This document shows, one piece after another, positions 7,098 to 50,498 of a DNA stretch of 64,000 bases. Within the stretch, counting starts at the first letter, position 1. Each line of letters starts with the position of its first letter. Position numbers and translations under genes: made by a program. The notes under the pieces are model-generated. The model worked only from the letters and a program-made list of their open reading frames with translations. It made no database searches and had not been told where the DNA came from. Source of the stretch: a virus; the IMG/VR virus record IMGVR_UViG_3300027977_000027, positions 1 through 64,000 of that record; one strand, written 5' to 3'.

Positions 7098-7511
7098 ATG
7101 AAAACGTTTATAAAAAAACTACTTAGAGAGTCAATTGCCAGACCTACAGCTGTTGGTGTTTTAATAAAATGCGATAAAACAGATAAAGTATTTCTTATGT
7201 TAAGAAACGATAAGAAACCAACTTGGTCATTGGTTTCTGGTGGGTTAGAAAACGGTGAAGAACCTATAGATTGTTTGAAAAGAGAAGTATCTGAAGAGTT
7301 GTCAATCGACCCAAACATTATAAGTTATAAAAAAGTTGGTGTGGAAGATATATCAAGTAAAAATTTAACATTTCATTATTATGAAGGCTTGACTTCTAAC
7401 GAATTTGTTCCTAAATTGAACCATGAAAATTTAGAATGTGGTTGGTTTGAAAAAGATAACTTACCATCACCATTGTTTATTGGAATGAGTAAAAAAATAA
7501 AAAACATATGA
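7098..7511 (+). CDS. Nudix hydrolase
   Basis: Nudix box GGLENGEEPIDCLKREVSEEL; N-terminal MKTFIKKLLRES extension. Confidence 0.9.
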   Translation: MKTFIKKLLRESIARPTAVGVLIKCDKTDKVFLMLRNDKKPTWSLVSGGLENGEEPIDCLKREVSEELSIDPNIISYKKVGVEDISSKNLTFHYYEGLTSNEFVPKLNHENLECGWFEKDNLPSPLFIGMSKKIKNI

Positions 7512-7726
7512 GTAGAGACGCTTTATCAAGGGAATTTGAACTTGTTGAAAAACAAAAGATAAATGACAAATATGTTACTGCTTTAAAGAAAGCGCAATTT
7601 GCTAATGAAATTAAAGCTGGCCTTGGGGCTAAAATAAAAGAAAACCCTAATAAAGTTATAATAATAAAGAAATCATGGGGGCAAAAAGCCTTATCATGGT
7701 TTAAAAATATTTTCACAAAGTTTTAA
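7508..7726 (+). CDS. Hypothetical protein
   Basis: 72 aa, overlaps previous stop. Confidence 0.6.
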   Translation: MSRDALSREFELVEKQKINDKYVTALKKAQFANEIKAGLGAKIKENPNKVIIIKKSWGQKALSWFKNIFTKF

Positions 7727-7727
7727 T

Positions 7728-7961
7728 ATGACATACGAACAGTTGATAGAAACCATATCCCTAATAGTTGAAACTGAAAAAATACAAAAGGTTGGTTTAA
7801 ATCTTCATTATGAATTAGATGAAAAACAGCATTTGATTTTAAACGAAGAAATATACAGAAGAACAAACCTATACTCAAATAATTTTACACCAACAGATGA
7901 GTTTGAAGTTATGATTGCTGGTATACTTGTAAAATTTACAAAAATAAAATTGCAAGCTTAA
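7728..7961 (+). CDS. Hypothetical protein
   Basis: 77 aa ORF. Confidence 0.6.
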   Translation: MTYEQLIETISLIVETEKIQKVGLNLHYELDEKQHLILNEEIYRRTNLYSNNFTPTDEFEVMIAGILVKFTKIKLQA

Positions 7962-7988
7962 AAAATTATTAGTAACTTTGCAATCGTT

Positions 7989-8489
7989 ATGAAAAAACTA
8001 TCGTTTATATTTTTACTAAGTTTTATCTTAGTAGCTTGTTCAAAAGAAGACATGACGCCTGGTAGTTATACACAAGGTCAACCGCAGCCTGAAGACACAA
8101 CTAGCTGGCAATCACTTTATGAGGATGCTGGCGTGTTACCTAGTTGGGGTAACGTTAATCAAACAAATGAGTTGGTTGGAACATCTTGGGTTTTAACACA
8201 TTTACAAATAGGTTTGACAACACAACCGTTACCAATTGATACTGTAAGGTTTATAGATAATGTTTATTATACGATTAACAGTGGTGCTGTAAGAACTTAT
8301 CAGTTATCAGTTGGTGTTGCCACTAGTAGTAAATCACTTACATTGAATTATCATTTCCCATTTGGAAGCGGAAACTATAAAGGTGAAGTGGCTTCGACAT
8401 TTGTTAGTGATGGTGTGATTTATAATTGCGAATTTTATAATACAAACACTAGCACGATGATGGTTAGAGCGTCTTTCGTAAAAATTTAA
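7989..8489 (+). CDS. Lipoprotein
   Basis: Signal peptide with lipobox ILVAC followed by SKED; TAACTTTG promoter upstream. Confidence 0.75.
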   Translation: MKKLSFIFLLSFILVACSKEDMTPGSYTQGQPQPEDTTSWQSLYEDAGVLPSWGNVNQTNELVGTSWVLTHLQIGLTTQPLPIDTVRFIDNVYYTINSGAVRTYQLSVGVATSSKSLTLNYHFPFGSGNYKGEVASTFVSDGVIYNCEFYNTNTSTMMVRASFVKI

Positions 8490-8507
8490 AAAATATTTTC
8501 AAAAATA

Positions 8508-8566: not shown

Positions 8567-10000
8567 ATGAGTAAACTTTTAGCTGCAATGCAAACAAATG
8601 ACACGCTTACTTTGAATGGTATGCCTACAAATTCTTCAAGCCTTAACCACTGCGTTAACTTGTTTTTTCAAATAGGTGCAATGAGAGGTCAAGACAAAGT
8701 TCGTCTTATAAATGCTTTTACAAAAGCGTTTGGTGAAAACCCTTTGACAGCCATGAAACTATTATTCTGGGCACGTGACGTTCGTGGTGGTGCTGGTGAA
8801 AGACAAATCTTTAGAGATATTGTCGAATATCTTGCAAAAAACCATAAAGATGCTATGGCTAAAAACCTTCACCTTATTAGTGAATATGGTAGATGGGATG
8901 ACCTTCTAATTTTGATTGGAACGCCTTTGGAAAAACAAGCTTTAGAGCTTATCGAAAAAGGTATGACAGATAAAAACGCTTTGGTGTTTAAATGGATGCC
9001 ACGTCCAAATGTTACAAATCGTGAAAAGAAAAGATGGGCTGCTGCCGTAAGACAATACATGGGTCTTTCTCCAAAAGAATACCGTAAGTTGTTGGTTGAA
9101 AACTCTAACACCGTTGAGCAATTGATGTGTGCTAATGAGTGGTCAGCTATTCAATACTCTAAGTTGCCTTCTAAGGCTATGAGCGACTTGATGAAAGCGT
9201 TCACAAAACATGACAAAGAAAGATTTGCTGCTTACTTAGAAAGAGTAAACAAAGGGGAAGCCAAGATTAATGCTGGTGCTGTATATCCATACGACATTGT
9301 GAAAAACTTAAGATTTGGTGACAAGTCTGGGGCTAACGCACAATGGAATGCTCTTCCTAATTACCTTGAAGGTAGCAAGGAAAGATTTCTACCAGTAGTT
9401 GACGTGTCTGGTTCCATGTCATGCCCAGCTGGTAACAACCCTAACGTTACTTGTATGGATGTTGCAATCTCTTTGGGATTGTATATTTCAGAAAGAAACG
9501 TTGGTCCCTTCAAGGATGCGTTTGTTACCTTCTCAAGCGACCCTAAATTGCAAGTACTTAGCGGTAATTTGCAAGAGAGATTTAACCAACTTGCTAGAGC
9601 TGACTGGGGCATGTCAACCAATGTTGAATCGGTATTCCGTTTGATACTTGACAAAGCGAAAGCTTCTAATGTATCAGAAGAAGAAATGCCAACCATGATT
9701 CTGATTATGTCAGACATGGAGTTCAACGCTGGAACTCGTGGTAACTGGAGCCTTAGCGCTCAGCAAATGTTCGAAAGAATGTACGCTGAAGCTGGCTACA
9801 AAATGCCTAAAGTTGTTTACTGGAACATTCACTCTAAAAGTGATAACTTCCCAGTACACTTTGACAAGAGTGGCAGTGCGCTTGTGTCTGGTTTCAGCCC
9901 AGCGTTGTTAACCAACTTGTTGGGTGGTAAAGATTTGACACCAGTATCTATGATGCTGGATGTTATCAACTCAGCACGTTACTCTGCGGTAACAGTCTAA
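8567..10000 (+). CDS. Ro60/TROVE-like helical ring + vWA domain protein (DUF2828-like)
   Basis: RDVRGGAGER, YGRWDDL, KWMPR, vWA MIDAS DVSGSM, STNVESVF, ILIMSDMEF, VVYWN, ALVSGFSP. Confidence 0.85.
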   Translation: MSKLLAAMQTNDTLTLNGMPTNSSSLNHCVNLFFQIGAMRGQDKVRLINAFTKAFGENPLTAMKLLFWARDVRGGAGERQIFRDIVEYLAKNHKDAMAKNLHLISEYGRWDDLLILIGTPLEKQALELIEKGMTDKNALVFKWMPRPNVTNREKKRWAAAVRQYMGLSPKEYRKLLVENSNTVEQLMCANEWSAIQYSKLPSKAMSDLMKAFTKHDKERFAAYLERVNKGEAKINAGAVYPYDIVKNLRFGDKSGANAQWNALPNYLEGSKERFLPVVDVSGSMSCPAGNNPNVTCMDVAISLGLYISERNVGPFKDAFVTFSSDPKLQVLSGNLQERFNQLARADWGMSTNVESVFRLILDKAKASNVSEEEMPTMILIMSDMEFNAGTRGNWSLSAQQMFERMYAEAGYKMPKVVYWNIHSKSDNFPVHFDKSGSALVSGFSPALLTNLLGGKDLTPVSMMLDVINSARYSAVTV

Positions 10001-10523: not shown

Positions 10524-10525
10524 TT

Positions 10526-13649: not shown

Positions 13650-13706
13650 GATTTATTTGGATTGTTAAATAAATTTACGTATCTTTACAAAAAAATAAAT
13701 ACCAAT

Positions 13707-14687
13707 ATGTTTAGAAAAGACTATTACGAAATACTTGGCGTAACAAAAGAAGCTTCAGCTGAAGAAATAAAGAAAGCTTATAGGGATTTGGCAAAGAAAT
13801 GGCACCCTGACAAAAACCATAACAATGCAGAAGCTGAAGAAAAGTTTAAAGAAATATCTGAAGCGTATGAAACATTATCAGATACGGTTAAAAAACACAA
13901 ATACGATAATAATGACCGTTTTTCTGGTTTTAATTTTGATTTCTCAAGCATGGGTCGTCAAAGACCTATGAGAGTTGGGGAAAATATTAAGTTAAATTTA
14001 AAACTTACATTGGAAGAAATATTTTCTGGTGTTAAAAAATCATACAAATATAAAAGAAAAGATAGTTGTTCCTCATGCGATGGTCATGGCGGTAGTGATT
14101 CTCAAACTTGTCCAAGCTGTAACGGCACTGGAGCCGTTGTTCAAATATTTAACACACCTATAGGTCAAATTAGACAAGCCATGGAGTGTCCAACTTGCAA
14201 TGGCTCTGGTCAAACGTATAAGGATAAATGTAACGTATGTAATGGTGAAAGTGTAAAATTGGTTGAAGAAACGATTGAGCTAGAGATACCATATGGCGTT
14301 GCTGATGGGGCTACATTTGTCATGGGTGGCAAAGGTAATGCAATTAAAAGTGGTAGACACGGTGATTTATATTTTGTGGTAAATGAGTTGCCACACCATA
14401 GGTTTGTTAGAGATGGAAACAATTTAAAAATTAATTTAAAGCTATCGTACCCACAACTAGTATTGGGTGATAAGGTTGCAGTTGAAACAATTGATGGTAA
14501 CAAAATTAGAGTTAATATACCAGAGTACAGCCAATTAGATTCTAATTTAAAAGTTGTTGGTAAAGGAATGACTGAATTTAGAAGTGGTAATCGTGGTGAT
14601 ATGATAATAAATTTAGGGATAACAATACCTAAGAAGATTGATGATGAGACTAAAGAACTCTTGGAAAAATTAAAGACTAAAATTTAA
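13707..14687 (+). CDS. dnaJ: Chaperone DnaJ
   Basis: J domain KDYYEILG...HPD, four CxxCxGxG repeats, C-terminal domain. Confidence 0.95.
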
Positions 14688-15724: not shown

Positions 15725-16420
15725 ATGAATATCGCAAACGAGTTTAAAGATTATGCTATAAAGCATATGGGTGTTTCATCGCTGAATTTTTACCATTGGG
15801 AACAGCTTCAAGAAAAGCTGTATGGTTCCAGTGCTTCGCTGACACCATATATTTTGGAAGAAAGAGAAATGCGTGTAACACAGATGGATATTTTTTCCAG
15901 AATGATGATTGACCGCATTATATGGTTAGCTGGACCAGTTAATGATAGAATGAGTACCGTTGTTCAAGCACAACTTATGTTTTTGGATAACTTAGAAACA
16001 AAAGATATTACTTTGCATGTTGATAGTCCAGGTGGTTCTGTAAAGTCTGGCTTGTCTATCGTAGATGTTATGGATTATGTTGCGTCTGATATTGTAACTA
16101 TAAACACTGGTATGGCTGCAAGCATGGGTAGTGTTTTGCTAGGTTCTGGAACCAAAGGAAAGCGCTATAGCTTACGTTTCAGTAGAGTTATGTTACATCA
16201 AGTATCTGGAGGTGCTGAAGGGAACATTCAAGATATTCGTATTAGTTTAGCTGAAGCTGAAAAATACAATGAACTTCTTTTTGGTCTTCTTGGTAAATAT
16301 ACAGATAAAGACCCAAAACAAGTTATGGATGACGCTAGCCGTGATAAATGGCTAAATTCAGATGAAGCTCTTGCTTATGGAATAATAGACAATGTTATAA
16401 CGAATAAAAAGAAAAAATAA
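15725..16420 (+). CDS. clpP: ATP-dependent Clp protease proteolytic subunit
   Basis: DIFSRMMIDRII, DSPGGSV, AASMG (Ser), MLHQ (His), RDKWL...EALAYGIID. Confidence 0.95.
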   Translation: MNIANEFKDYAIKHMGVSSLNFYHWEQLQEKLYGSSASLTPYILEEREMRVTQMDIFSRMMIDRIIWLAGPVNDRMSTVVQAQLMFLDNLETKDITLHVDSPGGSVKSGLSIVDVMDYVASDIVTINTGMAASMGSVLLGSGTKGKRYSLRFSRVMLHQVSGGAEGNIQDIRISLAEAEKYNELLFGLLGKYTDKDPKQVMDDASRDKWLNSDEALAYGIIDNVITNKKKK

Positions 16421-16533: not shown

Positions 16534-16890
16534 GGGGATATAAAGGTATTGACTGAATATAGTCGTAATTGGTAAGCATGTAGTGCTAGATGGAAGCACT
16601 TTAATCTCGCTATTAACACTTTTAGATGGCAACGATTTTGTTGTATCCGAAAATTTCCTTACCGAAGCTGCTTGCAGTTTCGCTGGAGAGCTTGCTGTAG
16701 CCTAATATAGCTGATAGTGATAATTCACTTCATCGTGGTATGTTCCACGGCATGATGGTAGACCATTAGGGTCTCTTGATTTCCTTCACAAATAATCAAG
16801 ATATTTTGTTTCGTTAGAAAATGAGACTAAACATGTAGAAAGTCTTTCAAGAGTATTCAACACATGGGTTCGATTCCCATTATCTCCACC
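16534..16890 (+). ncRNA. ssrA: tmRNA
   Basis: GGGGATA 5' end pairs with TATCTCC-ACC with G3:U; T arm atgggTTCGATTcccat; tag frame 16628-16705 GNDFVVSENFLTEAACSFAGELAVA*. Confidence 0.9.
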
Positions 16891-19678: not shown

Positions 19679-19722
19679 AAATTAAAATATTTTTAATACC
19701 TTTGTAAAAATATTTATTGATT

Positions 19723-20301
19723 ATGAAAGATAATATCAAACAAATTCTTAGAGAAGGACTTATTCGTGAAGAACGTATCAAGTTTGATTTACGCATACCT
19801 AGTGATATACAAGAAATAAAAGACGTGTTTAAAAAGAACGGATTTAAATTGTATGTTGTTGGTGGTGCTGTACGTGATGCACTTTTAAATAAGACACCCA
19901 AAGACTTTGATTTGGCTACTGATGCAGTTCCAGATAAGGTTGAAGAAATAATGGCCAAGGCTGGATTCAAAACCCTTCCAACAGGCAAGGCGTTTGGGGT
20001 TATAAACGTATTTACCAGTGAAGGTGAATACGAAATTGCAACTTTTAGGTCTGATGAAACTTCTGGTAGAAATCCAGAAGTTAAATTAGGAGCAACAATA
20101 GAATCGGATGCTGCTAGAAGAGATTTACGAATTAATGCATTATATTATGATTTAGATACTAATGAAATAATTGATTTAGTTGGTGGGCTTGATGATTTAA
20201 AGAATGGTGAAATTAATATGGTTGGAAACGCACAAAAACGTTTTGAAGAAGACCCACTTAGAATTTTACGTTTTTTTAGGTTTTTTTCTAGATTTAACTA
20301 A
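19723..20301 (+). CDS. CCA-adding enzyme/poly(A) polymerase, N-terminal head fragment
   Basis: VGGAVRD, DFDLAT, EIATFR, RRDLRINAL, EDPLRILRFFRF then stop. Confidence 0.9.
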   Translation: MKDNIKQILREGLIREERIKFDLRIPSDIQEIKDVFKKNGFKLYVVGGAVRDALLNKTPKDFDLATDAVPDKVEEIMAKAGFKTLPTGKAFGVINVFTSEGEYEIATFRSDETSGRNPEVKLGATIESDAARRDLRINALYYDLDTNEIIDLVGGLDDLKNGEINMVGNAQKRFEEDPLRILRFFRFFSRFN

Positions 20302-20350
20302 CTGAAGATACGTTTAGGGTTTTTCGTTATATTTATAGTAAAAGAATATT

Positions 20351-21220
20351 ATGCAAAAACTATGGAAAAAAGAAGAAATTGATTTATTGGTAAGATTATA
20401 TGAAATTGATGGTTTATCTGTTACTGAATTATTTCCACTTTTCAACGAAAAATATAATAGGCCAATTATTGGTTTACAAGTTAAAATTGGTAGACTCAAA
20501 CTAAGACATAGTAAAGAACAAATTAAAGCTATAAAGTCAAGATTAAATAGTGGTGAATTAAATGGTATGTTTGGTAAGAAATCACCTATGAAAGGGTTAA
20601 CTTCAGAAACATCGGAAATAGTTAGAATTAAATCAGATAAAACATCTAAAACCAGAAAAGAAATGTTTAAAAATGGTGAGCTACAACCATTAACTGGTTC
20701 AACAAACCCTATGTATGGTTCTATATCTTGGAACAATGGTTTAAATAAATACATGGATAAACGTATATTTAATTATGGTGAAAAGATATCTAAAATTAAA
20801 AAAAAAGAGTGGGAAAATAAAACTGAGAATGAAAAAAGGGAAACAATACTTAGGTTAAATAACGCTATGATTCAAACAAAAAAACCGACTAAAATTGAAG
20901 ATAAAATAGAAAACTTTTTAAAAGAAAATGAGGTAAAATATATTAAGAATAAACGTTACGATTTATTTATATTTGATTTCTACTTATTAGAATTTAATTT
21001 TGTGATTGAATGTGATGGTGATTATTGGCACGCAAACCCTTTATTTTATAATGGTAAAAAATTAACTGATGCACAAATAAAAAATATAGAAAGAGATAAA
21101 AGAAAAAATTTGTTATTAGAATCAAACTTAATTGATTTTGTTAGGTTTTGGGAGTTTGATATTAAAAATAATTTTGAAATAATAAAAAAAACAATATGGG
21201 AGAAATTACAAAAGAAATAG
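20351..21220 (+). CDS. Vsr/DUF559-type homing endonuclease inserted in the CCA gene
   Basis: NUMOD3-like NGMFGK/NPMYG, FDFY...IECDGDYWH...D..K...RFWE. Confidence 0.85.
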   Translation: MQKLWKKEEIDLLVRLYEIDGLSVTELFPLFNEKYNRPIIGLQVKIGRLKLRHSKEQIKAIKSRLNSGELNGMFGKKSPMKGLTSETSEIVRIKSDKTSKTRKEMFKNGELQPLTGSTNPMYGSISWNNGLNKYMDKRIFNYGEKISKIKKKEWENKTENEKRETILRLNNAMIQTKKPTKIEDKIENFLKENEVKYIKNKRYDLFIFDFYLLEFNFVIECDGDYWHANPLFYNGKKLTDAQIKNIERDKRKNLLLESNLIDFVRFWEFDIKNNFEIIKKTIWEKLQKK

Positions 21221-21798
21221 ATATTGCTTTGAAAAACACTGTTCATTTATTAAGTGGTATATCTAGTGAACGTATCCGTGATGAATTTATTAAAGGTATT
21301 GTTTCAGCAAAGTCACAAAAAGACTTTTTGGGGATGTTGGATAAGTACAAGTTATTTGATTGGATATTCAAAGGTTTGGATGTGGATATGGGATTTGTTA
21401 ACAGACTTGGTGGTTATAATCATGATGATTATATTGTATTGTTAGCAAGACTTCTTAAGAAAAACAACTTAGATTTATTGAAGAAAAAATTGAATGAATT
21501 AAAATATTCAGTTGAAGAAGTAAAAACCATAACTTTCCTTATTGCTATGTTAAAGCTAGATGTTGATACTGCTGTAACACTTAAAAGAGCTGAAAAAAAT
21601 TCTGGTGTAACTCCAGACCAAATTAGGGATTTTTGTGGTAAGGAAAATGTAAGTAGTCAATTACTAGATGCTTTTGAGGAATTTAGACTAACAGTTAGTG
21701 GTCCAGAAGTTATGGATGACTTGGGGTTAAAACCAGGACCAGAACTTGGAAAAGCAATTCAAAAGATTGAAACGGATAATTTCAAAAAACTTTTATAG
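21196..21798 (+). CDS. CCA-adding enzyme, C-terminal body/tail fragment
   Basis: LSGISSERIRDEFIK and VSGPEVMDDLGLKPGPELGKAI, typical of class II nucleotidyltransferase C-halves. Confidence 0.85.
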   Translation: MGEITKEIDIALKNTVHLLSGISSERIRDEFIKGIVSAKSQKDFLGMLDKYKLFDWIFKGLDVDMGFVNRLGGYNHDDYIVLLARLLKKNNLDLLKKKLNELKYSVEEVKTITFLIAMLKLDVDTAVTLKRAEKNSGVTPDQIRDFCGKENVSSQLLDAFEEFRLTVSGPEVMDDLGLKPGPELGKAIQKIETDNFKKLL

Positions 21799-21846
21799 TG
21801 TTTATTTTTTAATAAACCAAGATATTTATATCTATAAACAAATACT

Positions 21847-22464
21847 ATGAAAAAAAGAGAAATTATAACTGAGACCAAAAGAAAATCTTTATTAGCAGAT
21901 AGAGAAAAAGCCATCGTTGAGTCATTTGCAAAAACTTTTAACAAAATAAAAAGATTGGACGAAGCTTATGGAATGTCCTTTGAGGATGCCAAAGCCGAAG
22001 CAAAAAGAATTTCTGATGAAGAAGGTGGTGTAGCTCAACACGTAAATCAAGTTGGCGAAGATAAATTTATTGTTTCTGATTTTTTTGACGCTGACACAAC
22101 AGTGGCTAGCTTTGGAATTGGAATTGATGAAGCCGAATATTATGACGGTGACGATTATGAACAAGCTTCTAGAAGCATTGAATATGGTATTGACCCATAT
22201 GCTGAAAGACCATCATTGTTTGATGGTGTAGATAGAATATCGGTTGCTAGACCAGAATACAATGGCGCAGTAATGAATAGCATATACGGTATATATATCA
22301 TTTACAAAGATGGTAAACAAGAAAAAATACATTCAGTAGAAGAGTTTAATGATAAATTTGGTACTGATATACCATTAACAAAAGACCCAAGAGAAGTTGT
22401 TTCTTACATTGAAACAAATTACCCAGAAGTTACTGTTTATTTGGATGAATTTGATGTATCATAA
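21847..22464 (+). CDS. Hypothetical late/virion protein
   Basis: ATATTTAT upstream; ITE, IVE, LDE motifs. Confidence 0.65.
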   Translation: MKKREIITETKRKSLLADREKAIVESFAKTFNKIKRLDEAYGMSFEDAKAEAKRISDEEGGVAQHVNQVGEDKFIVSDFFDADTTVASFGIGIDEAEYYDGDDYEQASRSIEYGIDPYAERPSLFDGVDRISVARPEYNGAVMNSIYGIYIIYKDGKQEKIHSVEEFNDKFGTDIPLTKDPREVVSYIETNYPEVTVYLDEFDVS

Positions 22465-25015: not shown

Positions 25016-25591
25016 ATGAAACAGTTAATTAAAAAATTATTAAGAGAATCTTTAAATGAAATTGTTTCTGGTGGAGAATACATTGTGTACCATGGAACAA
25101 ATTCTGACATCCAAAAATTCTCTGATGAGTTTGTTGGTAAAGAAGAAGCCACAGACCAAGAGGGACCAGGAATATATTTTACCACTTTAAAAGAAGAATC
25201 TGAAATGTATGGTAAAAATCTTTATAGTGTTAAACTAACACCAAGAAAATTAATGGATATGACACCCATTAATAAAAATAAATGGCGTTCTTTTACAACA
25301 AAAATGTTACAGTCTGCACCAGATTGGGAAGATACAGCGCAAAATTTTAATCAGAATCCTAGAAAAGGTCTTATTTTAGCTGTTGAAAGTATGATGGATT
25401 ACAACGACACAGAAAAAGACCTTGCACAACAAATTTGGTATGACTTTTATCGCTATACACCAGTCGATTTTGTTAGAAACATGGTAGATATGGGTATTGA
25501 TGGAATAATAGTGCCTAGAGAAAAGAGTAACCATATAATTGTGTACAACCCAAACATTATAGATGTTTTAGAGGTGGAAAACAAAGATTAA
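25016..25591 (+). CDS. ADP-ribosyltransferase-fold protein (ART-PolyVal-like)
   Basis: VYHGT...F...GPGIYFT...YG...GIDGII...IVYNPNII; MKQLIKKLLRESLNE leader. Confidence 0.6.
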   Translation: MKQLIKKLLRESLNEIVSGGEYIVYHGTNSDIQKFSDEFVGKEEATDQEGPGIYFTTLKEESEMYGKNLYSVKLTPRKLMDMTPINKNKWRSFTTKMLQSAPDWEDTAQNFNQNPRKGLILAVESMMDYNDTEKDLAQQIWYDFYRYTPVDFVRNMVDMGIDGIIVPREKSNHIIVYNPNIIDVLEVENKD

Positions 25592-25645: not shown

Positions 25646-26575
25646 ATGAAAGAAAGAATTAAAGAAATATTGCGTGAAAGTGTTGATAAAAACATACTTG
25701 GTGTTACGATTACAAGACCTAACCAAGAATTAATTGTGATGAGGGGCGTATCTGGTGCTGGAAAGAGTACCAAAGCTAAATCTTTGGTTGGTCAAGGTAA
25801 AATCCATTCAACTGATGACGTTATTGAAGCTGGCGGTGATTACCGTGAATTTTTTGCTAAGATGATTGCGTCTGGAGATTTTAGCCCACTCAGCAAGGTA
25901 CATTCTCAAAACTTAAAAGACGCTATTGAGTCAATGAAAGCTGGTATCACACCAGTTATTATTGATAACACCAATATAAAACAAAATGAGCCAAAAGCTT
26001 ATGTTAAAGCCGCTTTGGAATTAGGGTTTGCTGACAATAATATAAAATTCGTAGATGTTGGTACTGCTGGTATTGAAGCTGCACAATTAGCCGCAAGAAA
26101 CACACATGGTGTACCATTGGAGAAGATTGAGGCTATGATAGCAAGTCATACAGCGCAGGGCCCATTAACATTAAAAAGTGTGTTAGATTCAAAAGATATG
26201 TACAAATCATCAAACGTTTTATACTCGGCTGTTGTTTTAGACAAAGCTTCACATAATAAATTGCTTGACAAATTTGCATTAGAAATGCCAGAAGGTTGGA
26301 AAACGTATGCCCATCATATGACAATAACCATGGGTGAATTGAAGGATAAAACTGACATTGGTAAAGAAGTTATCCTTAAAGTAACAAAGGTTGGATTGTC
26401 TGATATGGCTATGGCTGTTCAAGTTGAAGGTTATCAGTCAAAAAATGCTATTCCTCACGTTACTTTAGCGGTAAACCCAGATGGTGGTAAGCCAGTTATG
26501 TCCAATGATATTACTACTTGGCAAGATATCAAACCATTTTTTATCACAGGGTTTGTAACAGAAGTTAAAAAATAG
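25646..26575 (+). CDS. Polynucleotide kinase + 2H cyclic phosphodiesterase (RNA end healing)
   Basis: MRGVSGAGKST, IIDNTN, RNTHGVP; HHMTI and PHVTL 2H motifs. Confidence 0.85.
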   Translation: MKERIKEILRESVDKNILGVTITRPNQELIVMRGVSGAGKSTKAKSLVGQGKIHSTDDVIEAGGDYREFFAKMIASGDFSPLSKVHSQNLKDAIESMKAGITPVIIDNTNIKQNEPKAYVKAALELGFADNNIKFVDVGTAGIEAAQLAARNTHGVPLEKIEAMIASHTAQGPLTLKSVLDSKDMYKSSNVLYSAVVLDKASHNKLLDKFALEMPEGWKTYAHHMTITMGELKDKTDIGKEVILKVTKVGLSDMAMAVQVEGYQSKNAIPHVTLAVNPDGGKPVMSNDITTWQDIKPFFITGFVTEVKK

Positions 26576-31542: not shown

Positions 31543-32007
31543 ATGAAAAAACATATTTCATTCCCATCTATTGAGCAATTTAGAAATGTTGTTGGCACCG
31601 TAAATCGCCAATACAATTTTGTTGGTTTGGATGAAAATGGTGAAGCTATTTATGATTCTTCACTACCTAAACCAGTTCTAACATTTAAAGGTACCGTCAA
31701 AATTCACGGTTGTTTTGACAAGGATAGTTTAGTTATGTTAGCTAATGGCGAAGAAATACCAATATCTGAAATTAATGTTGGTGACCAAGTTTTATCTTAT
31801 GATATTGAAAATGGTAAGTTTATAGAAAAAGAAGTTTTACATACTGAAAATAAAGAGTCTGATAAAAAATGGTTAAAATTAATTTTTGATAATGATTCTT
31901 TTATTGAATGTACTGAAGACCATAAATTTTATACAATCAATAGAGGCTGGGTTGAAGCTAAAAATTTAACAGAAAATGATATTTTTTTGGAATCAATGAT
32001 GATTTAG
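31543..32007 (+). CDS. RNA ligase 2 N-extein fused to split intein N-half
   Basis: FPSIEQF...TVKIHG then CFDKDSLVMLANG...IECTEDHKFYT...WVEAKNL (intein blocks A and B) from 31711. Confidence 0.9.
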   Translation: MKKHISFPSIEQFRNVVGTVNRQYNFVGLDENGEAIYDSSLPKPVLTFKGTVKIHGCFDKDSLVMLANGEEIPISEINVGDQVLSYDIENGKFIEKEVLHTENKESDKKWLKLIFDNDSFIECTEDHKFYTINRGWVEAKNLTENDIFLESMMI

Positions 32008-32067
32008 CATTAGTTTCGTGAATACCTACATATTTATATTAAATAATAAAATATAAATAAAGGTAAA

Positions 32068-32904: not shown

Positions 32905-33880
32905 AAAAATTGAAAATAAAAAATCATATGATATATCTGTTAAAGATACTAATTGTTTTTTTGTTAATGGTATATTGGTCCACAACTCCAACGCTGGAGT
33001 TTGTTTTAACAAGTCAGATGGTATTTGGGTTCAATCACGTGAAAACATTATCACACCATTATCAGATAATGCTGGATTTGCTTTCTTTGTTGAAACAAAT
33101 AAAACTGCTTTTTTGGAAATTTTAAATCAAATTGCTGAAAAATTTGAAATTAATTTAGATGAAAACACTATTTCGCTTTATGGTGAATGGGCTGGTTCGT
33201 CAATTCAAAAAGGTGTTGCTATCACAAACATCCCAAAATCATTTTTTATTTTTGGTATTAAAATAACACCACATGTTGAAACAGATGAAGAAAGAAAAGA
33301 AAAACCAGCATATTGGGTAGACTACACCACTTTTAAAAATGTTGAAGCGAAAATTTTCAATGTAAACGATTTTAAAACATTTGAAATCGAGATTGATTTT
33401 AAACATCCAGAATTGGTTCAAAATAAAATAGTAGAAATGACATTATCGGTTGAAGAAGAATGTCCTATTGCTAAAGAATTTGGTTTTTCTGGTGTTGGTG
33501 AGGGTATTGTCTTTACTTATGTAAATGATAAAGGTCAAAGAGTTTCTTTCAAGTCTAAAGGTGAAAAACATGCAACTGGTTCTAAAGTAAAAACAGTAAA
33601 ACCAGTTGATGATGTTAGGATTGCAAAACTTCAAGAATTAGCTGATAAAGTAACACCAGAATGGAGATTGGACCAAATGTTAACTAATACATTTAATCTT
33701 ATTAACGGTGGTGAATTAGATATTAAACGTTTAGGTGAATATATTAAAAATGTTTCGTTTGATGTTCTTAAAGAAGACGCTGATATTATTTCGGACGCTG
33801 GTTTTGAATTCAAAGATATTGTTAAGTATGTGTCAGAAATAGCTAAAAAATATTTTTTAGTTAAATATAATAATATTTAA
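32885..33880 (+). CDS. Split intein C-half fused to RNA ligase 2 C-extein
   Basis: YDISVKDTNCFFVNGILVHN|S (32885-32986), then SNAG, QSR, YGEWAG, FGIK, GEGIV, FKSKGEKH. Confidence 0.9.
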   Translation: MKLKKIEKIENKKSYDISVKDTNCFFVNGILVHNSNAGVCFNKSDGIWVQSRENIITPLSDNAGFAFFVETNKTAFLEILNQIAEKFEINLDENTISLYGEWAGSSIQKGVAITNIPKSFFIFGIKITPHVETDEERKEKPAYWVDYTTFKNVEAKIFNVNDFKTFEIEIDFKHPELVQNKIVEMTLSVEEECPIAKEFGFSGVGEGIVFTYVNDKGQRVSFKSKGEKHATGSKVKTVKPVDDVRIAKLQELADKVTPEWRLDQMLTNTFNLINGGELDIKRLGEYIKNVSFDVLKEDADIISDAGFEFKDIVKYVSEIAKKYFLVKYNNI

Positions 33881-33885
33881 TAGTT

Positions 33886-34089
33886 ATGATTAAGAACAGA
33901 GTATATAAATTAAAAAAAACGGTTGAGGTGGCGAGAGGATTGACTCTTCAAGCTGGTCAAGAAATTGAGATTGTGATGAATGTTGTTTATATGGGTGGTT
34001 TTATGCTACCTCCAGAAATGCAACCATTATTTTTAGAATGGATAAAAAATAACCCAGCGTTATTTGAAGACGACACACGTAATTGGTAA
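33886..34089 (+). CDS. Hypothetical protein
   Basis: 67 aa ORF in operon. Confidence 0.6.
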   Translation: MIKNRVYKLKKTVEVARGLTLQAGQEIEIVMNVVYMGGFMLPPEMQPLFLEWIKNNPALFEDDTRNW

Positions 34090-40226: not shown

Positions 40227-40970
40227 TTAAAGCTCACTAATTGCTTTATTGATTAAACGTATTAATAAGATGCTTTTGTAAGTTAAAAACACATCAACGT
40301 GGTCATTAAACTTTGCTATTACATTTATAGGTTTGTTGTCAATTCTAATCACCTCATCTTCATGATATGCTCTAGATAGAATTTTAAAATACTTAGATTT
40401 AAAAATGAATTCGTTTGGGTTTGTCGTATATTCTAAAACAAAAGCCATTCTTAAATCTTTCGCAATAATTTCTTTTAATAGTTCTTTTCTTGCTTCTGGT
40501 GTTTGATAATCATTAAAATTAATACTACTTGCTACTTCATTTAAAATATCATGATTACCAAATATTGAAGCGGAATCAAAATTTGTTGACCAACTTTGAA
40601 CTTTGTTTCTAGCTTTATAAACATAAGGAAATGGTTTCTGAAGACTTATTGGTTGTTTTGACCTTATGAAATACTCAGCTGGTAATGTTAAACCACGGTA
40701 TACCTTTGTTTTTTCTGGTATAAGCACTTCAGGATATTGTTGCATACAACCTTTAAGATTCTTAACCACTTTTATAAAATCTGACTCAGTTGCTTCACCG
40801 TACTTGTTATCAGTAAAATCTTTTATATCATCAACATATTTGTTTTCGATTCCAGTGTTTCTTTCTTTTCCACCTAATTCATCAGCAAAAAGTTCGTTAC
40901 CAAACTTTTTAACACACGCTTCAATTTCAATCTCATTTATAAGGTTATTATATACTTCTAGGATTTTCAT
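40227..40970 (-). CDS. Putative R-S-E type ADP-ribosyltransferase
   Basis: VYRGL, QSWST, HEDEV motifs; ATATTTAT upstream; MKILEVYNNLINE leader. Confidence 0.6.
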   Translation of the reverse strand: MKILEVYNNLINEIEIEACVKKFGNELFADELGGKERNTGIENKYVDDIKDFTDNKYGEATESDFIKVVKNLKGCMQQYPEVLIPEKTKVYRGLTLPAEYFIRSKQPISLQKPFPYVYKARNKVQSWSTNFDSASIFGNHDILNEVASSINFNDYQTPEARKELLKEIIAKDLRMAFVLEYTTNPNEFIFKSKYFKILSRAYHEDEVIRIDNKPINVIAKFNDHVDVFLTYKSILLIRLINKAISEL

Positions 40971-41050
40971 TATATATAAATATTAATTTTTTGTAAAAAA
41001 CTTGATAAATTCACAAATGTTCTTTATATTTATAAATATTTATTAAAAAC

Positions 41051-42916: not shown

Positions 42917-42976
42917 CAAAGCTCCGAAAGGGGCTTTTTTTATTTGTTTGGATATTTATGAAAAAGCAACTTTAAG

Positions 42977-45280
42977 ATGAAAATTTCAAATATATTTAAA
43001 GAAATCATTAATGAAGATTTCAAGTCGCAGACAGCTAATTTTATTAAACAAGGTTTCGATGCTAATATTGTTAAAACATATATTGATAAGTTTAAGTATA
43101 TTAGAGATAACAAGTTCAAAGAAATGTTTGATGATAAGTTAGACATTCCAGTGCCACCTCAAAAACGTAACGATATTGATGCTTATAAAGATTTCCATGA
43201 TTTGGAAAGGTTGGTTGATTATGTTGGTGGTAGAAGACAAGGTGTTTCAACACTAGGTAAGAAAGAAGATATAGAATTGGACGCAAAACCAGTATATGAA
43301 GATGACAATTTTATTGTTTACTATGCCGATACTCCAAGAGCTTGTATAAAGTATAAGGGTAGTTTTCCTTATTCATGGTGTGTAGCTAGAAGTGATTCTT
43401 CTAATATGTTTTACACATATCGTTTTAAACCTTATGAGCCAGCTTTTTATTTTGTTAAAAACAAAAAATTGACCGAAAAAGAATTTGGTGTTTGGAATAT
43501 GACTAAGAATGTTTTTAAAGGACAGTTTAAATATCCATATCACTTTTTTGTTATTCAAGTACCAAAAAACATAGACATTGAAAGTGATGAAAATGAACAA
43601 TATATTGTTACTTCAGCAAATAATGATGGTGACAAACAGATGAGTTGGAAAGATATATTAAAACTAAGTCCGAATATTGCACAAATAAAAGAAGTACTTA
43701 AACCAAAACCTTTTACAGATGAAGAAAGGGAAAAGAATAATAGATTTAAGAATGGTATAAATGACCAAGAATTTGCTAAACTAAGTTATGAAGATAAAAG
43801 AAGTTATTTGGACATTTATCCAACAATATCTAGACCAATTACAACAAAACAATTGATTGAACTTCCAGATGATTTATTAAACCTTTATGTTTCTTTTGGT
43901 ATAGGTTTAAATGACGAACAATTCGCACACATAAAACCAAAAAAAGATGTTTTAAAAAGATACACGCAAATAAGTAAAAGAAAGTTAGAAGAGTATTTAA
44001 AAAATTCTACATATGACCGTAGAAGATTAAGAATGGCATACACTGAACTTATTGTTTTGTCTGATGAAGAAATTAAGAGTTATTTAGAAACATTAGATAA
44101 AAAAGAGTTAAATAGATTTATTAAAGACAATGGTGAAGATAAAATAGAAATGTTGGAGAAACATGTTTCAGATAAATTTACCAGTGAATTTAAAGATTTA
44201 AAAACTATTGTTTTAAAAGCTAAAGACGATGACGAGGAAGCCTTGAATAAATTATATTCAATGGTACCAGAAAATGTTGATATAACTTTTTCTAACTCTG
44301 GTAATTTTATAATCATAGACACCAGCAATTACGGAAGCATATTACAAAAAAGAATGAGTAGTAACGTTTATGAATTATTAGAAAGAGTTGAAGAAGATAG
44401 ACAATGGGGTGGTAGTTATTACGATGATTATTTTTATGATGACCCAGAAAGGTTGGATGAAGAATATAAACATTATCTTACAGAATTTATAAATAACAAT
44501 AAAGATTTAAAACAAGAATTCGATTCATTTGGTTTAGAGTTTAATTTTGAAACTGTTGATGATTTATTAGAAACTTACAAAGAAAAAGATGGTATCAGAG
44601 AAACGATTAGTAGTGAATATACTTACGCTAAAGAAAAATCCGAACAAAAAGCTTGGGATAAAGTAAAAAATGAGATTAAATCTATTGTTTATTTGTATGA
44701 TGATGCTTTATACATGAAAGTTGGTCCGTTCATAATGAATTTGCTTTCTTATAAATTATTTACAACAGATGCTGAACAGTTTATAGATAATTTAGGTGAT
44801 TTTATTGATAATATGTTAAATGATAATGATTTACCTGATAATATGGATACAGTTTGGGAGGAAGTTAATGAAGCTGGTTGGAATTTTATGGATGTTGATA
44901 ATGATGAAATATATAGGACAATAAAGAGTAATATTTCAGATGCTATAGATAAGTTTTCTAACGATGAAGGTGCTCAGGATGATACTGAAGAACAACCAAA
45001 TACGGTAAAATTAAAATCAGAAATTATTACCCTTTTAAAGAATACTTTAAAAGGTTTGGGTCAAAGTCCAGATGCAAAGACGATAGAAAATGATATTGCA
45101 AGGATAGATATTGACCGCCAAAGATTTAAGTTAGATGGTAAGGTTTACATAAAAATATATGATAAACAGCAAAAAAAAGAACATGAAGGTTATGTGTTTA
45201 TCAATGATTTACCATCATATTTTAGAAACTACAAACTTTTTGAACAAGTTAGTAGAATTAAAAATTTAATGAGGTATTAA
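42977..45280 (+). CDS. Large probable virion internal protein
   Basis: 767 aa, ATATTTAT upstream, MKISNIFKEIINE start, SWCVA motif, C-terminal LFEQVSRIKNLMRY. Confidence 0.6.
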   Translation: MKISNIFKEIINEDFKSQTANFIKQGFDANIVKTYIDKFKYIRDNKFKEMFDDKLDIPVPPQKRNDIDAYKDFHDLERLVDYVGGRRQGVSTLGKKEDIELDAKPVYEDDNFIVYYADTPRACIKYKGSFPYSWCVARSDSSNMFYTYRFKPYEPAFYFVKNKKLTEKEFGVWNMTKNVFKGQFKYPYHFFVIQVPKNIDIESDENEQYIVTSANNDGDKQMSWKDILKLSPNIAQIKEVLKPKPFTDEEREKNNRFKNGINDQEFAKLSYEDKRSYLDIYPTISRPITTKQLIELPDDLLNLYVSFGIGLNDEQFAHIKPKKDVLKRYTQISKRKLEEYLKNSTYDRRRLRMAYTELIVLSDEEIKSYLETLDKKELNRFIKDNGEDKIEMLEKHVSDKFTSEFKDLKTIVLKAKDDDEEALNKLYSMVPENVDITFSNSGNFIIIDTSNYGSILQKRMSSNVYELLERVEEDRQWGGSYYDDYFYDDPERLDEEYKHYLTEFINNNKDLKQEFDSFGLEFNFETVDDLLETYKEKDGIRETISSEYTYAKEKSEQKAWDKVKNEIKSIVYLYDDALYMKVGPFIMNLLSYKLFTTDAEQFIDNLGDFIDNMLNDNDLPDNMDTVWEEVNEAGWNFMDVDNDEIYRTIKSNISDAIDKFSNDEGAQDDTEEQPNTVKLKSEIITLLKNTLKGLGQSPDAKTIENDIARIDIDRQRFKLDGKVYIKIYDKQQKKEHEGYVFINDLPSYFRNYKLFEQVSRIKNLMRY

Positions 45281-47484: not shown

Positions 47485-47950
47485 ATATTATAAATATCTG
47501 TCATTTTATTAAAAAACATTTTTTTAACAAAATACTTTCGAATTTTTAAAAACACTTGCATAATAGAAAAAAAATTTGTACCTTTGTGTGTAATTTAAGA
47601 ATAGAAAAATTTATGGATGTGATTGAATATATTGTAACTGATATTTTTGAAGGAAAATATAATAACGTTTATGATTTGGAAAACAAATTTTATGATGACA
47701 TTAAACTTCGTCTAAGAAATGAGTCTGAAAAAAATATTTTTTTTTAGAAAGATTAAGAACTTCTATTATTTCAGAAGGTGAAAATTATATAAGAAAATGC
47801 AATTGTGGTAAGGCCAGCTGTGGGTATGTATCTATGAAAAATAGTTCAATAAAAATTATAGATGCTTTAATTATGGAATTAAAAGAATAGTCGGTGATAT
47901 TGAAAGAAGAGGTAAATTTATTTACATAACAGGAACAAAAGAATAAAAAC

Positions 47951-48277
47951 ATGACAGAAATTAAATTTAATTTAACGCTTAATTTTAACCCAGATGCATC
48001 TGGGTCACCTAGACCAACAATAATTAACTTACCAGAAAACACTGATGGTGGTTTGACATATATCTTTGATGAAGTAATCATACCACACTCAAAAGAGTAT
48101 TTAAAAGAAATAGAAAAAAATGATTTTACTGATTTTTATTACTACATACTAGAAAATATTACATTTAGGGATAGTAACGGTAAATTTCAACATTTTAAAG
48201 GTATTGATTACGAAGCTATTATTGAATCAACAGAGGAAAAGACCGTATACAAAAATTTTAAAATTATTTATGAATAA
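47951..48277 (+). CDS. Hypothetical protein
   Basis: 108 aa ORF. Confidence 0.6.
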   Translation: MTEIKFNLTLNFNPDASGSPRPTIINLPENTDGGLTYIFDEVIIPHSKEYLKEIEKNDFTDFYYYILENITFRDSNGKFQHFKGIDYEAIIESTEEKTVYKNFKIIYE

Positions 48278-48327
48278 GTAATATTTACTTATAAATAAAA
48301 GTGTATTATAATTAATTATGGATAAAG

Positions 48328-48762
48328 GTGAGAGTACCAACAAGGAAGAAGATAGGTACCATTTGTTTGGCCGTGGCCAGTTTCCTAAACCCTTTTGGGT
48401 TCGATATTTTAGTTTACAAATTAATGTCATTAACCAACGACTATTGGACCACAATGCATATATTATATGTATCTGCGGCCCTATTCTTTGGGGTCTCTTA
48501 TATTTCATTTAAGTTAGGTAAAAAAATACTGGCAAATGTTACCATGACTATGGCTTTATTTTTAAATCCTTTTGGTTACGATTTGATAGTTTTCTTTATA
48601 AATGAAATGACTCATAGTTATTGGGTTACCATGTCTGTTATGTATTTAATGTCTGGGTTGTTTTTTTCTGGTTTTATGTTTTTTTACAATATAAACCTAA
48701 TAAACGTTTTAAAAAACAATATTTATCAATATATAAAAAAAAAATTAATCAAAAATGGATAA
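48328..48762 (+). CDS. Four-TM membrane protein with internal duplication
   Basis: FLNPFGFD...YWTTM and FLNPFGYD...YWVTM. Confidence 0.7.
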   Translation: MRVPTRKKIGTICLAVASFLNPFGFDILVYKLMSLTNDYWTTMHILYVSAALFFGVSYISFKLGKKILANVTMTMALFLNPFGYDLIVFFINEMTHSYWVTMSVMYLMSGLFFSGFMFFYNINLINVLKNNIYQYIKKKLIKNG

Positions 48763-49234
48763 AACATTTGATGACTTGTTCAATGAGTTCTTAAAAAGAA
48801 ACAAAGAAACAATGGGTGGCGACCCTATGAGTGCTTTTAAAAATGAAGCAAAAAAGTTAATTGACATGATTAAGAATTTTGAGAGCGTTGATGATGTAGG
48901 TGATGAATTAGAGAAAAAAATGGATGTAACATTAGGTAAACCAGATAGAATAGAAACATACTTAGATGGTATTTTCTTCTTTGAAAAAAGAATCTGGTAC
49001 ACACCAAATGGTGAGATAGTAAAGATAACTGCATCTGATAACCCAAATAAAATCAAACCCCAAGAAACTGAAAAAAGTCTGGAAGAACAATTAAAATATG
49101 CTATTTCAGAAGAAAATTATGAAAAAGCCGCTGAAATAAGAGACAAAATAAAAATGCTTGAAGCCAAGCCAGACAAGGCTTCTGGACAAAAAATCAAAAA
49201 AAGTAAAAAAAAATCTAAAGCCAAACATGTCTAA
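48755..49234 (+). CDS. UVR (UvrB/C) domain protein
   Basis: LKYAISEENYEKAAEIRDKIK. Confidence 0.75.
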   Translation: MDKTFDDLFNEFLKRNKETMGGDPMSAFKNEAKKLIDMIKNFESVDDVGDELEKKMDVTLGKPDRIETYLDGIFFFEKRIWYTPNGEIVKITASDNPNKIKPQETEKSLEEQLKYAISEENYEKAAEIRDKIKMLEAKPDKASGQKIKKSKKKSKAKHV

Positions 49235-49373
49235 AAAATATATCAAAAAGTTTAATAATTTGGCTGAACTTGAACCAAAAGTCAGTCACATGGTATATTC
49301 CAAAGTTGATGGGTCAAAAAATAAATATCGTTTTGACTAAACGCTAAACGTTGAATATTTATAGTAAAAAAAC

Positions 49374-50498
49374 ATGAAACAGTTTATCAAAAAAATATTA
49401 ACAGAAAATCTTAACACTATATATGAGATTGACCTTCAAGGGGCGTTTAAAGATGTATCTTTTAAACAGTTAACTGTTGATGAAGCCAGAGAATATTTGG
49501 AGAGAGTAATCGCAAATTGCGAGAAAAAACCAGCTGAAAGAGAAAAACTAGCGACAAATAAACCTTATATACATGGAAAAACAATTCCAAAAGGTGTTGA
49601 AGGAGAAATAGATATGGATGCGTTCATTAAGAATATAACTTCTATGCCAAAAGAAATTTTGAGCGTAAACGCTAAAATGGAAAAATCGACTGCTGATAAT
49701 TCTCTTACTGTTAATATTGGTATACCAGCTTTAAGAGGTTTGGTTTATGATTTGGAAGCTGGTGTTTTTTATATCGTTAATACGTGTCCAGGGGCTGGAG
49801 CCTGTGCTTTATTTTGTTATGCAAGACAAGGTAGTTACGTAATGTTTCCAGGGGTTTTTGTTAAACAAACCAGAATCTTAAATTTGCTTCTTAATTTCCC
49901 AGAGAGATTTGAGAAATTACTATTAAGAGAATTAGAAGCTGTTGCGTTGAAGAATCCAGACAAATCAATAAAGATGAGGTGGAATGATGCTGGTGATTTT
50001 TTCAGCCAAGAATATTTTAACATAGCTTATAGAATAACCAAACAATTAAAAACTGATGGTTATGATGTAACTTCATATGCATATAGCAAGATGGCCAATG
50101 TAGCCAACTTAGAAGACGAAGATTTTGTTGTCAATGTATCTGGAGATATCAATGTAAAACAGTCTACGCAGATAAAAGACATTGAAAGCAAAAAGAATCA
50201 AGTTACGGTACCTAAAGTTTTATTTGATGATTTATTGGTAAAAGACAAAAAAGAATATGCGGTAGATGAAAAAGGCAAAGTTATATTTAAACAAGGAAAA
50301 GATGGTGTTGATACTTTGAAGAAAAGAATTTCTTTAAAATATGACGTTCCAGATGAAACACTTTTGACTTATGATGAAATGTTGAAGACACCAAAAGGTG
50401 AAAAGAACCAGTATAACGTAGTGATAATGCCAAAAGGTGATGGGGATGTAGCGGCACAAAGAACAGATGTAAAAACCAGTTTCTTATTAATCCACTAA
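49374..50498 (+). CDS. Gp88-like Fe-S (radical-SAM-like) protein
   Basis: TCPGAGACALFCYA, RWNDAGDF, YAYSK; MKQFIKKILTENL leader. Confidence 0.7.
   Translation: MKQFIKKILTENLNTIYEIDLQGAFKDVSFKQLTVDEAREYLERVIANCEKKPAEREKLATNKPYIHGKTIPKGVEGEIDMDAFIKNITSMPKEILSVNAKMEKSTADNSLTVNIGIPALRGLVYDLEAGVFYIVNTCPGAGACALFCYARQGSYVMFPGVFVKQTRILNLLLNFPERFEKLLLRELEAVALKNPDKSIKMRWNDAGDFFSQEYFNIAYRITKQLKTDGYDVTSYAYSKMANVANLEDEDFVVNVSGDINVKQSTQIKDIESKKNQVTVPKVLFDDLLVKDKKEYAVDEKGKVIFKQGKDGVDTLKKRISLKYDVPDETLLTYDEMLKTPKGEKNQYNVVIMPKGDGDVAAQRTDVKTSFLLIH

Follow-up and report, generated by a model that had tools for sequence, protein, structure and literature searches.

Interchangeable N-terminal leader peptides on unrelated enzymes of an uncultured jumbo phage as candidate T4-like head-loading propeptides

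Why should a Nudix hydrolase, a CCA-adding enzyme, a polynucleotide kinase and a protein with an ADP-ribosyltransferase (ART) domain, otherwise unrelated, begin with almost the same dozen residues? The question is raised by a virus DNA of 64,000 nucleotides, hereafter the window, which represents positions 1 to 64,000 of the IMG/VR record IMGVR_UViG_3300027977_000027. The window is the first part of a 73,020-bp contig (G000; GC content about 30%) with completeness of 21% according to CheckV. 74 of the 120 open reading frames (ORFs) of this contig match, in collinear order and at 25-85% identity, a complete virus record of 362,018 bp (G002), and because of this match and the CheckV estimate the window is taken for about one fifth of a jumbo phage genome of ~350 kb. 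The original prediction, made from the sequence alone, had singled out eight genes whose products start with a peptide of the MKxxIKxxLxE kind and had considered it a possible capsid-targeting signal of the type known from T4 internal proteins. All eight N-termini are present, at the positions given below. The leader peptides are real, specific for N-termini, under selection at the protein level, located outside the folds of their carriers, modular and widespread. We consider it probable, though far from certain, that they belong to a T4-like jumbo phage and serve as cleavable, portable propeptides for loading of the head, by which their carriers would be cleaved, packaged and injected. The idea of a T4-like cleavable capsid-targeting signal has gained several independent in silico supports, while the proposal that the carriers are packaged and injected to counter host defences stays conjectural.

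The leaders fall into several classes. Class a, MKxxIKxxL[RT]E, is found at five gene starts of the window, all on the plus strand: the Nudix gene (7098-7511; leader MKTFIKKLLRES at 7098..7133), the head fragment of the CCA-adding enzyme (19723-20301; MKDNIKQILREG at 19723..19758), an ART-PolyVal gene (25016-25591; MKQLIKKLLRES at 25016..25051, followed by a second site, LNE), a polynucleotide kinase / 2H phosphoesterase, here called kinase-2H (25646-26575; MKERIKEILRES at 25646..25681), and a GP88-domain gene (49374-50498; MKQFIKKILTEN at 49374..49409). A sixth class-a start, MEKTKIKELLRET, is located outside the window at genome position 67648. Class b, MKIxxIFxxIINE, is common to a 767-aa protein (gene 42977-45280, plus strand; MKISNIFKEIINE at 42977..43015), whose G002 orthologue starts MKLSHIFKDLLNE, and to a 247-aa protein encoded on the minus strand (gene 40227-40970; MKILEVYNNLINE at 40932..40970). 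Starts resembling class c occur in a 596-aa protein (429..2219, plus strand; MKRVRITESQAKAL, with an ITE site) and a 205-aa protein (21847..22464, plus strand; MKKREIITETKRK). Finally, a variant leader, MNKKTIKNHLVKRFLSE (2260..2310), opens the plus-strand gene of a 570-aa protein (2260-3972) and is kept in its G002 orthologue, which starts MDKKIIKDFLVERFLNE. The sites at which the leaders of the contig end are LRE, LTE, INE, LSE and ITE. Pfam bears out the identities proposed for the Nudix, CCA (PolyA_pol head), ART-PolyVal, kinase-2H (AAA_33 and tRNA_lig_CPD) and GP88 proteins. The label of ART given to the 247-aa protein found no such backing: it matches no Pfam family, and ESM Atlas offers no more than a hint, DRAT at rank 16 (score 0.92). 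The 767-aa protein has no Pfam or PHROG family, and Atlas searches of both proteins gave no usable family.

Several controls show that the resemblance is confined to protein starts. The pattern IK..[LIVM][RKT]E has eight matches over the six frames of the contig, six of them lying 4-6 residues past the first Met, as compared with a mean of 0.05 N-terminal matches in 20 codon shuffles. When N-terminal 12-mers were compared by BLOSUM scores, without reference to any pattern, 19 pairs reached at least 28, as against 1 and 0 pairs at offsets 30 and 45. The biggest cluster comprised the six class-a leaders and one spurious member; the 767-aa protein was paired with the 247-aa one, along with two short ORFs taken as chance members, and the protein at 429 was paired with that at 21847. 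Synonymous codons vary among the copies (Ser TCA/TCT/AGT, Arg AGA/CGT, Leu CTT/TTA/TTG), therefore the selection acts on the peptide and not on a DNA repeat, and a repeat or mobile promoter cassette is ruled out as explanation. Two sets of pattern matches were dropped as false positives, namely those of the class-b expression to DNA ligases (MKIKEIFDEIAAE.., including the window gene 29030) and those of the class-a expression to RNA ligases (MLAIQKY..); these starts we take to be part of the ligase folds.

The leader is also conserved in orthologues that share 50-70% identity. It is kept in the kinase-2H orthologues of L005, L010, L011, L013, L014, L026 and L029, and in the CCA orthologues of L004, L006, L026 and L017. 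As to the CCA enzyme itself, it is split in the window (19723-21798): head ORF (19723-20301) and body ORF (21196-21798) are separated by an HNH homing-endonuclease gene (20351-21220). The enzyme of the relatives is intact, with 391-397 aa, and in G002 the endonuclease gene is situated beside the CCA gene, not inside it.

The leaders precede the folds of their carriers. Pfam domains start at residue 15 (NUDIX), 22 (ART-PolyVal), 29 (AAA_33), about 43 (PolyA_pol) and 99 (GP88); in the gene 25016-25591, ART-PolyVal (PF18760) covers residues 22-182 with 48.7 bits against a cut-off of 31.2, and in kinase-2H AAA_33 covers residues 29-168 and tRNA_lig_CPD residues 213-291. Alignments with solved Nudix homologues begin at query residue 14-26, those with 16 solved CCA and poly(A) enzymes at residue 20-36 or later, and kinases of distant cultured phages align with kinase-2H only from residue 18-27. 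In AlphaFold2 (AF2) models of the Nudix (25 sequences, mean confidence score pLDDT 91) and ART (38-sequence alignment, mean pLDDT 88) proteins, the leader appears as a detached low-confidence helix ahead of a domain with pLDDT above 90. The helix spans residues 2-12 of the Nudix model, where residues 1-10 have pLDDT 55 and the confident domain begins at about 17, and residues 2-13 of the ART model, whose first two ten-residue blocks have mean pLDDT 50 and 48 and whose confident domain begins at residue 22. The possibility that the peptide is simply part of conserved folds, which would have undone the original prediction, is ruled out by Pfam boundaries, solved homologues and models alike.

Comparison of homologues reveals that the leaders behave as modules. 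What stands before the domain differs among 95 ART homologues: it may be a leader of class a, b (MKIGKIFETLVDE..) or c (MKKIIITESQLK..), or there may be none, as in P0079 (MVFYHGS); class c replaces class a in P0038, P0043, P0046, P0054 and P0061. Some of 46 Nudix homologues are leaderless and others have a Zn-ribbon inserted between leader and domain. In two-domain ART forms (P0017-P0033; G002 orthologue 33067-33999) the whole leader is retained internally as an interdomain linker, ..NKFLIKTLLRENLLPE... Ahead of the domain, 68 of 70 ART homologues and 19 of 26 Nudix homologues have the putative cleavage site [LI]xE, where shuffles would give 34.7 and 8.3, respectively. ART homologues of Rak2-like jumbo phages (19 records, 32-37% identity) carry other leaders, MEMKKLMEDISAIME/G in CBB and ..SVIVE/G in XaC1 (here and below, a slash stands for the known or presumed cut). 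The AF2 model of ART-PolyVal matches an anti-CRISPR protein, MbcT and PARP catalytic domains; the top two Foldseek matches are the anti-CRISPR protein and a chain of the cyanophage pre-ejectosome, a packaged structure.

Nor are the leaders a peculiarity of a single contig. IMG/VR was searched for the exact DNA encoding MKxxIKxx[LF]RE (only AAA for Lys and only AGA for Arg), and this class-a pattern was found in at least 122 stretches, which hold at least 123 matches. Among the 123 matches listed, 111 open frames of at least 50 codons, 105 begin at the Met that comes first behind an in-frame stop, and the 38 residues that follow form 57 clusters. The permuted control pattern MKxx[LF]RxxIKE is present in 29 IMG/VR stretches in all, which makes it at least 4 times rarer than the leader.

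The closest known counterpart of class a is a propeptide of T4. The T4 vertex protein gp24 starts MAKINELLRES and its first 10 residues are taken off by the prohead protease gp21 (PMC9958956), which places the cut at LLRE/S and yields the spacing I-x-x-L-L-R-E-S, as in class a. MAKINELLRE/S of T4 and MKTFIKKLLRE/S and MKQLIKKLLRE/S of the window belong to the same length class. The difference lies in the carriers: one shell protein in T4, and here at least six unrelated, mostly enzymatic proteins of one phage, with predicted cleavage, and 57 sequence clusters among the IMG/VR matches listed. A position-specific scoring matrix (PSSM) built from 72 distinct class-a 10-mers ranked gp24 first among 566 T4 ORF N-termini. 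From the capsid protein gp23, gp21 removes 65 residues (PMC9958956). Residues 63-65 of gp23 are LTE and are aligned with SSLLTE60/STTAG of the G002 capsid protein (second high-scoring pair, E = 2e-6), while the site predicted in the capsid protein of another relative, G003, is SHLLNE/STTAD. Class a thus resembles the predicted maturation site of the relatives' own capsid proteins (LLTE/STT, LLNE/STT).

The other classes recall the capsid targeting sequence (CTS) of T4 internal proteins. IPII and IPIII start MKTYQEFIAEA (IAE10) and Alt starts MELITE (ITE6). Alt is cut at ITE-6 and LTE-619, and internal proteins enter the core by means of the targeting sequence, according to PMC5694885; this paper, like PMC3012670, cites Mullaney and Black 1996 for the CTS of IPII/IPIII, IPI and Alt. 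The leaders share with the CTS that a short N-terminal peptide ending in (I/L)xE is present on otherwise unrelated proteins. Class b MKISNIFKEIINE is comparable to MKTYQEFIAE/A and class c MKKIIITE to the MELITE/ site of Alt, and one carrier is an ADP-ribosyltransferase, as is Alt. In contrast to T4, the putative cargo of this phage comprises a CCA-adding enzyme, a kinase/2H phosphoesterase, Nudix, GP88 and ART-PolyVal proteins, its targeting is predicted, at least three leader types occur in one genome and the host is probably a member of Bacteroidota. Propeptides of phiKZ-like phages offer a further parallel. According to PMC5694885, MANFVKSKLARESVE opens both gp53 and gp54, two head proteins of SPN3US, and in their phiKZ homologue a cut takes place at SLE-13. 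The conservation of MANFVKSKLARESVE on these diverged paralogues (SPN3US gp53/gp54, phiKZ gp93) is reminiscent of class a and, by the same paper, the protease is related to gp21; however, these proteases prefer (S/A/G)xE and full propeptides exceed 100 residues, whereas here P3 is Leu or Ile and the leader has about 12 residues. Iyer et al. (2017, PMC5512222) defined the ART-PolyVal domain from proteins for which packaging and injection are predicted. With these polyvalent proteins the window ART shares the domain, and its two-domain relatives hold the leader as internal linker. It differs in being a single-domain protein of 191 aa with its own leader, not a protein of 2-15 disparate domains or a MuF or portal fusion; two domains occur only in relatives.

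A candidate protease for the cutting of such sites is encoded by relatives of the phage. Peptidase_S77, the family of T4 gp21, exceeds the Pfam cut-off with 91.7 bits in G002 (gene 215512-216237) and 75.2 bits in G003, and altogether in 8 of 14 leader- or ART-bearing records, including all four with completeness of at least 86%; the six records without it are 27-71% complete. BLASTP with T4 gp20, gp21 and gp23 finds proteins of G002 and G003 with E values from 3e-17 to 9e-27, and BLASTP of T4 Alt against G002 gave nothing significant. In both relatives portal, S77 protease and capsid protein are arranged in T4 order. The full gene order in G002 is portal, small core ORFs, protease, acidic scaffold-like protein, capsid protein, homing endonuclease and a 259-aa class-a protein, to be compared with 20-67-68-21-22-23-seg-24 in T4. 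The 259-aa protein of this head module is coiled-coil-like, and 9 of 10 G002 class-a proteins searched have no Pfam family. In three fragmentary relatives (G011-G013) the distance between a class-a gene and the protease gene is 3.5-7 kb. A 37-codon ORF with a perfect class-a leader (MKRLIKKLLRENLTND..), on the minus strand at about 210,464-210,580 of G002 (L053), lies immediately downstream of the gene for the 259-aa protein and represents a leader gene that has either decayed or suffered a frameshift.

Most leader genes have a common upstream motif, ATATTTAT. It lies at 7086..7093, 4 nt ahead of the Nudix ATG; further plus-strand copies are located at 19710-19717, 49355-49362, 42952-42959, 2237-2244, 21822-21829 and 154-161, and a minus-strand copy at 40976-40983 precedes the 40970 gene, whose homologue in G003 starts MKLVTLYKTIIKE and also has the motif upstream. 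The claim that the motif stands directly before most of the eight genes holds for six of them (within 45 nt); 25016 and 25646 have other boxes, described below. Copies are concentrated between genes: 28 of 35 in the contig, only 13% of which is intergenic, and 117 of 187 in G002, with 9.8% intergenic. The usual distance is 12-17 nt before ATG. In G002 the motif heads protease, terminase, core-protein and tail or baseplate operons, and for this reason it is read as a putative late promoter. In the contig it precedes 20 of 120 ORFs, namely 4 of 6 of class a as against 16 of 114 others (Fisher p = 0.007), and is also present before both class-b genes, 2260 and 21847. In G002 it is found up to 45 nt before 5 of 10 class-a pattern matches as against 82 of 485 others (p = 0.018), and two further class-a genes follow immediately upon a gene with the motif. 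Of the IMG/VR matches, 55 of the 123 leaders listed have it upstream, as against 2 of 29 controls. At some genes ATATTTAT ends 4-5 nt before ATG (7086-7097, 19710-19722, 40971-40983), and the gap is exactly 4 nt in nine G002 genes; if the motif is a -10-like element, such mRNAs would be leaderless or nearly so. A phage-encoded sigma-70-family factor (genome positions 66343-67239; L001 3343-4239) is a candidate reader of ATATTTAT. Many contig genes are preceded by TAnnTTTG, which we take to be the Bacteroidota -7 promoter element; judged from these promoters, the host of the phage probably belongs to Bacteroidota.

We propose the following working of the leaders as head-loading propeptides. The short amphipathic helix (residues 2-12) would dock on the core of the assembling prohead, and the (L/I)-x-E site behind it would be cut, after closure of the shell, by the prohead protease of the gp21 family (Peptidase_S77); T4 gp21 becomes active only in the assembled prohead (PMC9958956). 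The cut would free the mature enzyme within the head, from which it would be expelled with DNA at the next infection. Three types of leader would be interchangeable in this role: a, MKxxIKxxLRE/S, akin to gp24; b, MKIxxIFxxhhxE/, akin to IPII/IPIII; and c, MKKIIITE/SQL, akin to ITE-6 of Alt. Binding to the core, cleavage, presence in virions, ejection and a role in counter-defence are all steps that we infer. A more specific picture, which we offer only as a tentative one, is that a clade of ~350-kb phages pre-loads its capsids with an RNA-repair and nucleotide/NAD toolkit, consisting of CCA enzyme, kinase/2H, Nudix and ART, by means of interchangeable T4-like leaders, in order to repair tRNA and RNA and to modify host proteins before phage expression. 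If so, damage caused by nucleases of host abortive infection would be repaired before any phage gene is expressed, and the leader set would constitute an address code predicting the injected proteome of uncultured T4-like phages.

A number of observations weigh against head loading. No structural gene is recognisable among the window proteins by Pfam or PHROG, and the contig has no head genes and no Peptidase_S77 match; the link to a head module comes from relatives at 25-85% identity. There is no close cultured relative: megablast of 8 kb retrieved only a tRNA match, and tblastn of the kinase-2H, G002 259-aa and GP88 proteins against 50,697 phage records gave distant matches or none. The late-type motif is not universal either. 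The ART gene at 25016 has only a copy with one mismatch, ATATTTGA, the kinase-2H promoter is of the host type TAnnTTTG in both the contig (TACCTTTG at 25633-25640) and G002, and in G002 the motif is present at only 5 of 10 class-a matches, one of the ten being false. The leader of the G002 CCA orthologue is degenerate, MKTIIKEILKKNL, without the LRE site. Glu stands at P1' in 18 of the first 80 IMG/VR matches tabulated, so P1' is not always small. The PSSM margin is narrow, 11.9 for gp24 and 11.7 for a small T4 membrane protein. To our knowledge, the 10-residue peptide of gp24 has not been shown to target anything; gp24 being a shell protein, its peptide is a proven cleavage product and not a proven address. 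We likewise know of no precedent for packaging of a CCA-adding enzyme or polynucleotide kinase. Finally, phage CBB has a distant ART homologue, CBB_455, with a different leader, which is missing from the 55 CBB virion proteins detected by mass spectrometry (PMC5259590, Table 4); coming from a distant phage, this is weak negative evidence.

Could the leader serve something other than a capsid? It might be a docking helix for a partner such as a chaperone, the ribosome or an RNA-repair complex, neither cleaved nor packaged. Such a role would suit the amphipathic helix detached from its domain, the several carriers acting on RNA or nucleotides (CCA enzyme, kinase-2H, Nudix, ART), the early-type promoter of kinase-2H and the DnaJ and ClpP that the phage encodes. 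We nevertheless regard it as unlikely: carriers of the IMG/VR matches listed form 57 clusters, mostly without recognisable link to RNA, apart from the [LI]xE site the leader classes have little in common, structural operons and most leader genes have the same promoter motif, and the likeness both to gp24 and to the predicted capsid-protein site of the same lineage would have to be coincidence. A reading closer to head loading, and in our opinion quite unlikely too, accepts the leaders as true protease substrates and lets the proteins enter the head for its assembly, as core, scaffold or spacer, or for their removal from the cell, but not as ejected effectors. The lack of Pfam families in nine of the ten G002 class-a proteins searched and the coiled-coil-like carrier in the head module of G002 agree with it, as does the fact that gp21 also acts on gp22, gp67 and gp68, which belong to the T4 core (PMC5694885). 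The T4 precedents Alt and IPI are, on the other hand, effectors, and many relatives retain, behind the leader, intact catalytic domains of Nudix, ART, kinase-2H and the CCA head, which points to enzymatic use after release.

It appears improbable that the peptide is instead an N-terminal tag for degradation or timing, which would limit the lifetime of the protein and might be recognised by phage ClpP together with a host unfoldase. The contig does encode full-length ClpP (Pfam 1.2e-56), DnaJ, tmRNA and SmpB, but the motif fits sites of gp21 type, and an N-degron could not function inside two-domain ART forms, in which the leader survives as internal linker. Least credible of all is an origin by chance or composition, in which AT-rich codons and selection at translation starts would yield similar Lys/Ile-rich N-termini. 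MK starts and A-rich early codons are indeed common in a genome with 30% GC; this explanation is already contradicted by the codon shuffles, the codon variation among copies, the permuted pattern and the conservation in orthologues.

The workings of the head-loading propeptides proposed here are akin to the targeting and propeptide system of T4 and to phiKZ-like propeptides, and are in this respect of a known kind. What is new is the proposed cargo (RNA-repair enzymes, Nudix, GP88 and ART-PolyVal proteins), the use of a gp24-type peptide as a portable leader, the presence of three interchangeable leader types side by side, and the lineage of uncultured ~350-kb phages. In the literature searched we found no account of such leaders, be it for uncultured jumbo phages or for those of Bacteroidota, and the jumbo-phage comparative paper PMC7824862 does not mention capsid targeting or propeptide. 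Should the leaders prove to be loading tags, one could read off from sequence which proteins uncultured giant phages inject. These proteins make up the first wave of counter-defence and as a rule come to light only by virion proteomics. The known range of head cargo would be widened from small inhibitors, ADP-ribosyltransferases and RNA polymerases to RNA-repair enzymes and a Nudix hydrolase. The close likeness to gp24 means that the leaders could be tested directly in T4 and E. coli, and they could act as tags for loading of foreign proteins into capsids.

The remaining content of the contig includes 11 tRNA genes and a tmRNA. By Pfam, the window encodes ClpP, DnaJ, IF3, RNase R, YqeY, RNA and DNA ligases and several homing endonucleases, besides the split CCA-adding enzyme. 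A T5 A1-like protein was considered as a marker for placing the phage and rejected, its distribution being too wide. A protein-quality-control and trans-translation set is formed by DnaJ (13662-14687), a metallopeptidase, full-length ClpP (15725-16420) and tmRNA (16534-16890), with a putative SmpB, read from its sequence, at genome positions 65828-66271 beyond the window. IF3 is encoded at 58904-59413, RNase R at 60233-62299 and YqeY at 51587-52018. At 5553-5732 there is a gene for a 59-aa histone H1-like Hc1 protein (Pfam 5.6e-21), conserved in G002 and placed in the block 184-5279, in which ATATTTAT stands before three genes and which also holds a GH19/PG-binding lysozyme and two large proteins without family. 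The gene 8567-10000, located amid RNA-repair genes, encodes 477 aa with DUF2828 and DUF7788 and matches phrog_850, "RNA-binding protein", at 2e-155. The RNA ligase (Rnl2-type) gene occurs in three pieces (31543-33880), while its G002 orthologue is a single 358-aa ORF. N-extein and the N-half of Hint occupy 31543-32007, and the C-half of the intein with the ligase 32885-33880; between them lies a free-standing endonuclease gene (32068-32904) with its own ATATTTAT motif, so that the locus looks like a split intein accompanied by a separate homing endonuclease.

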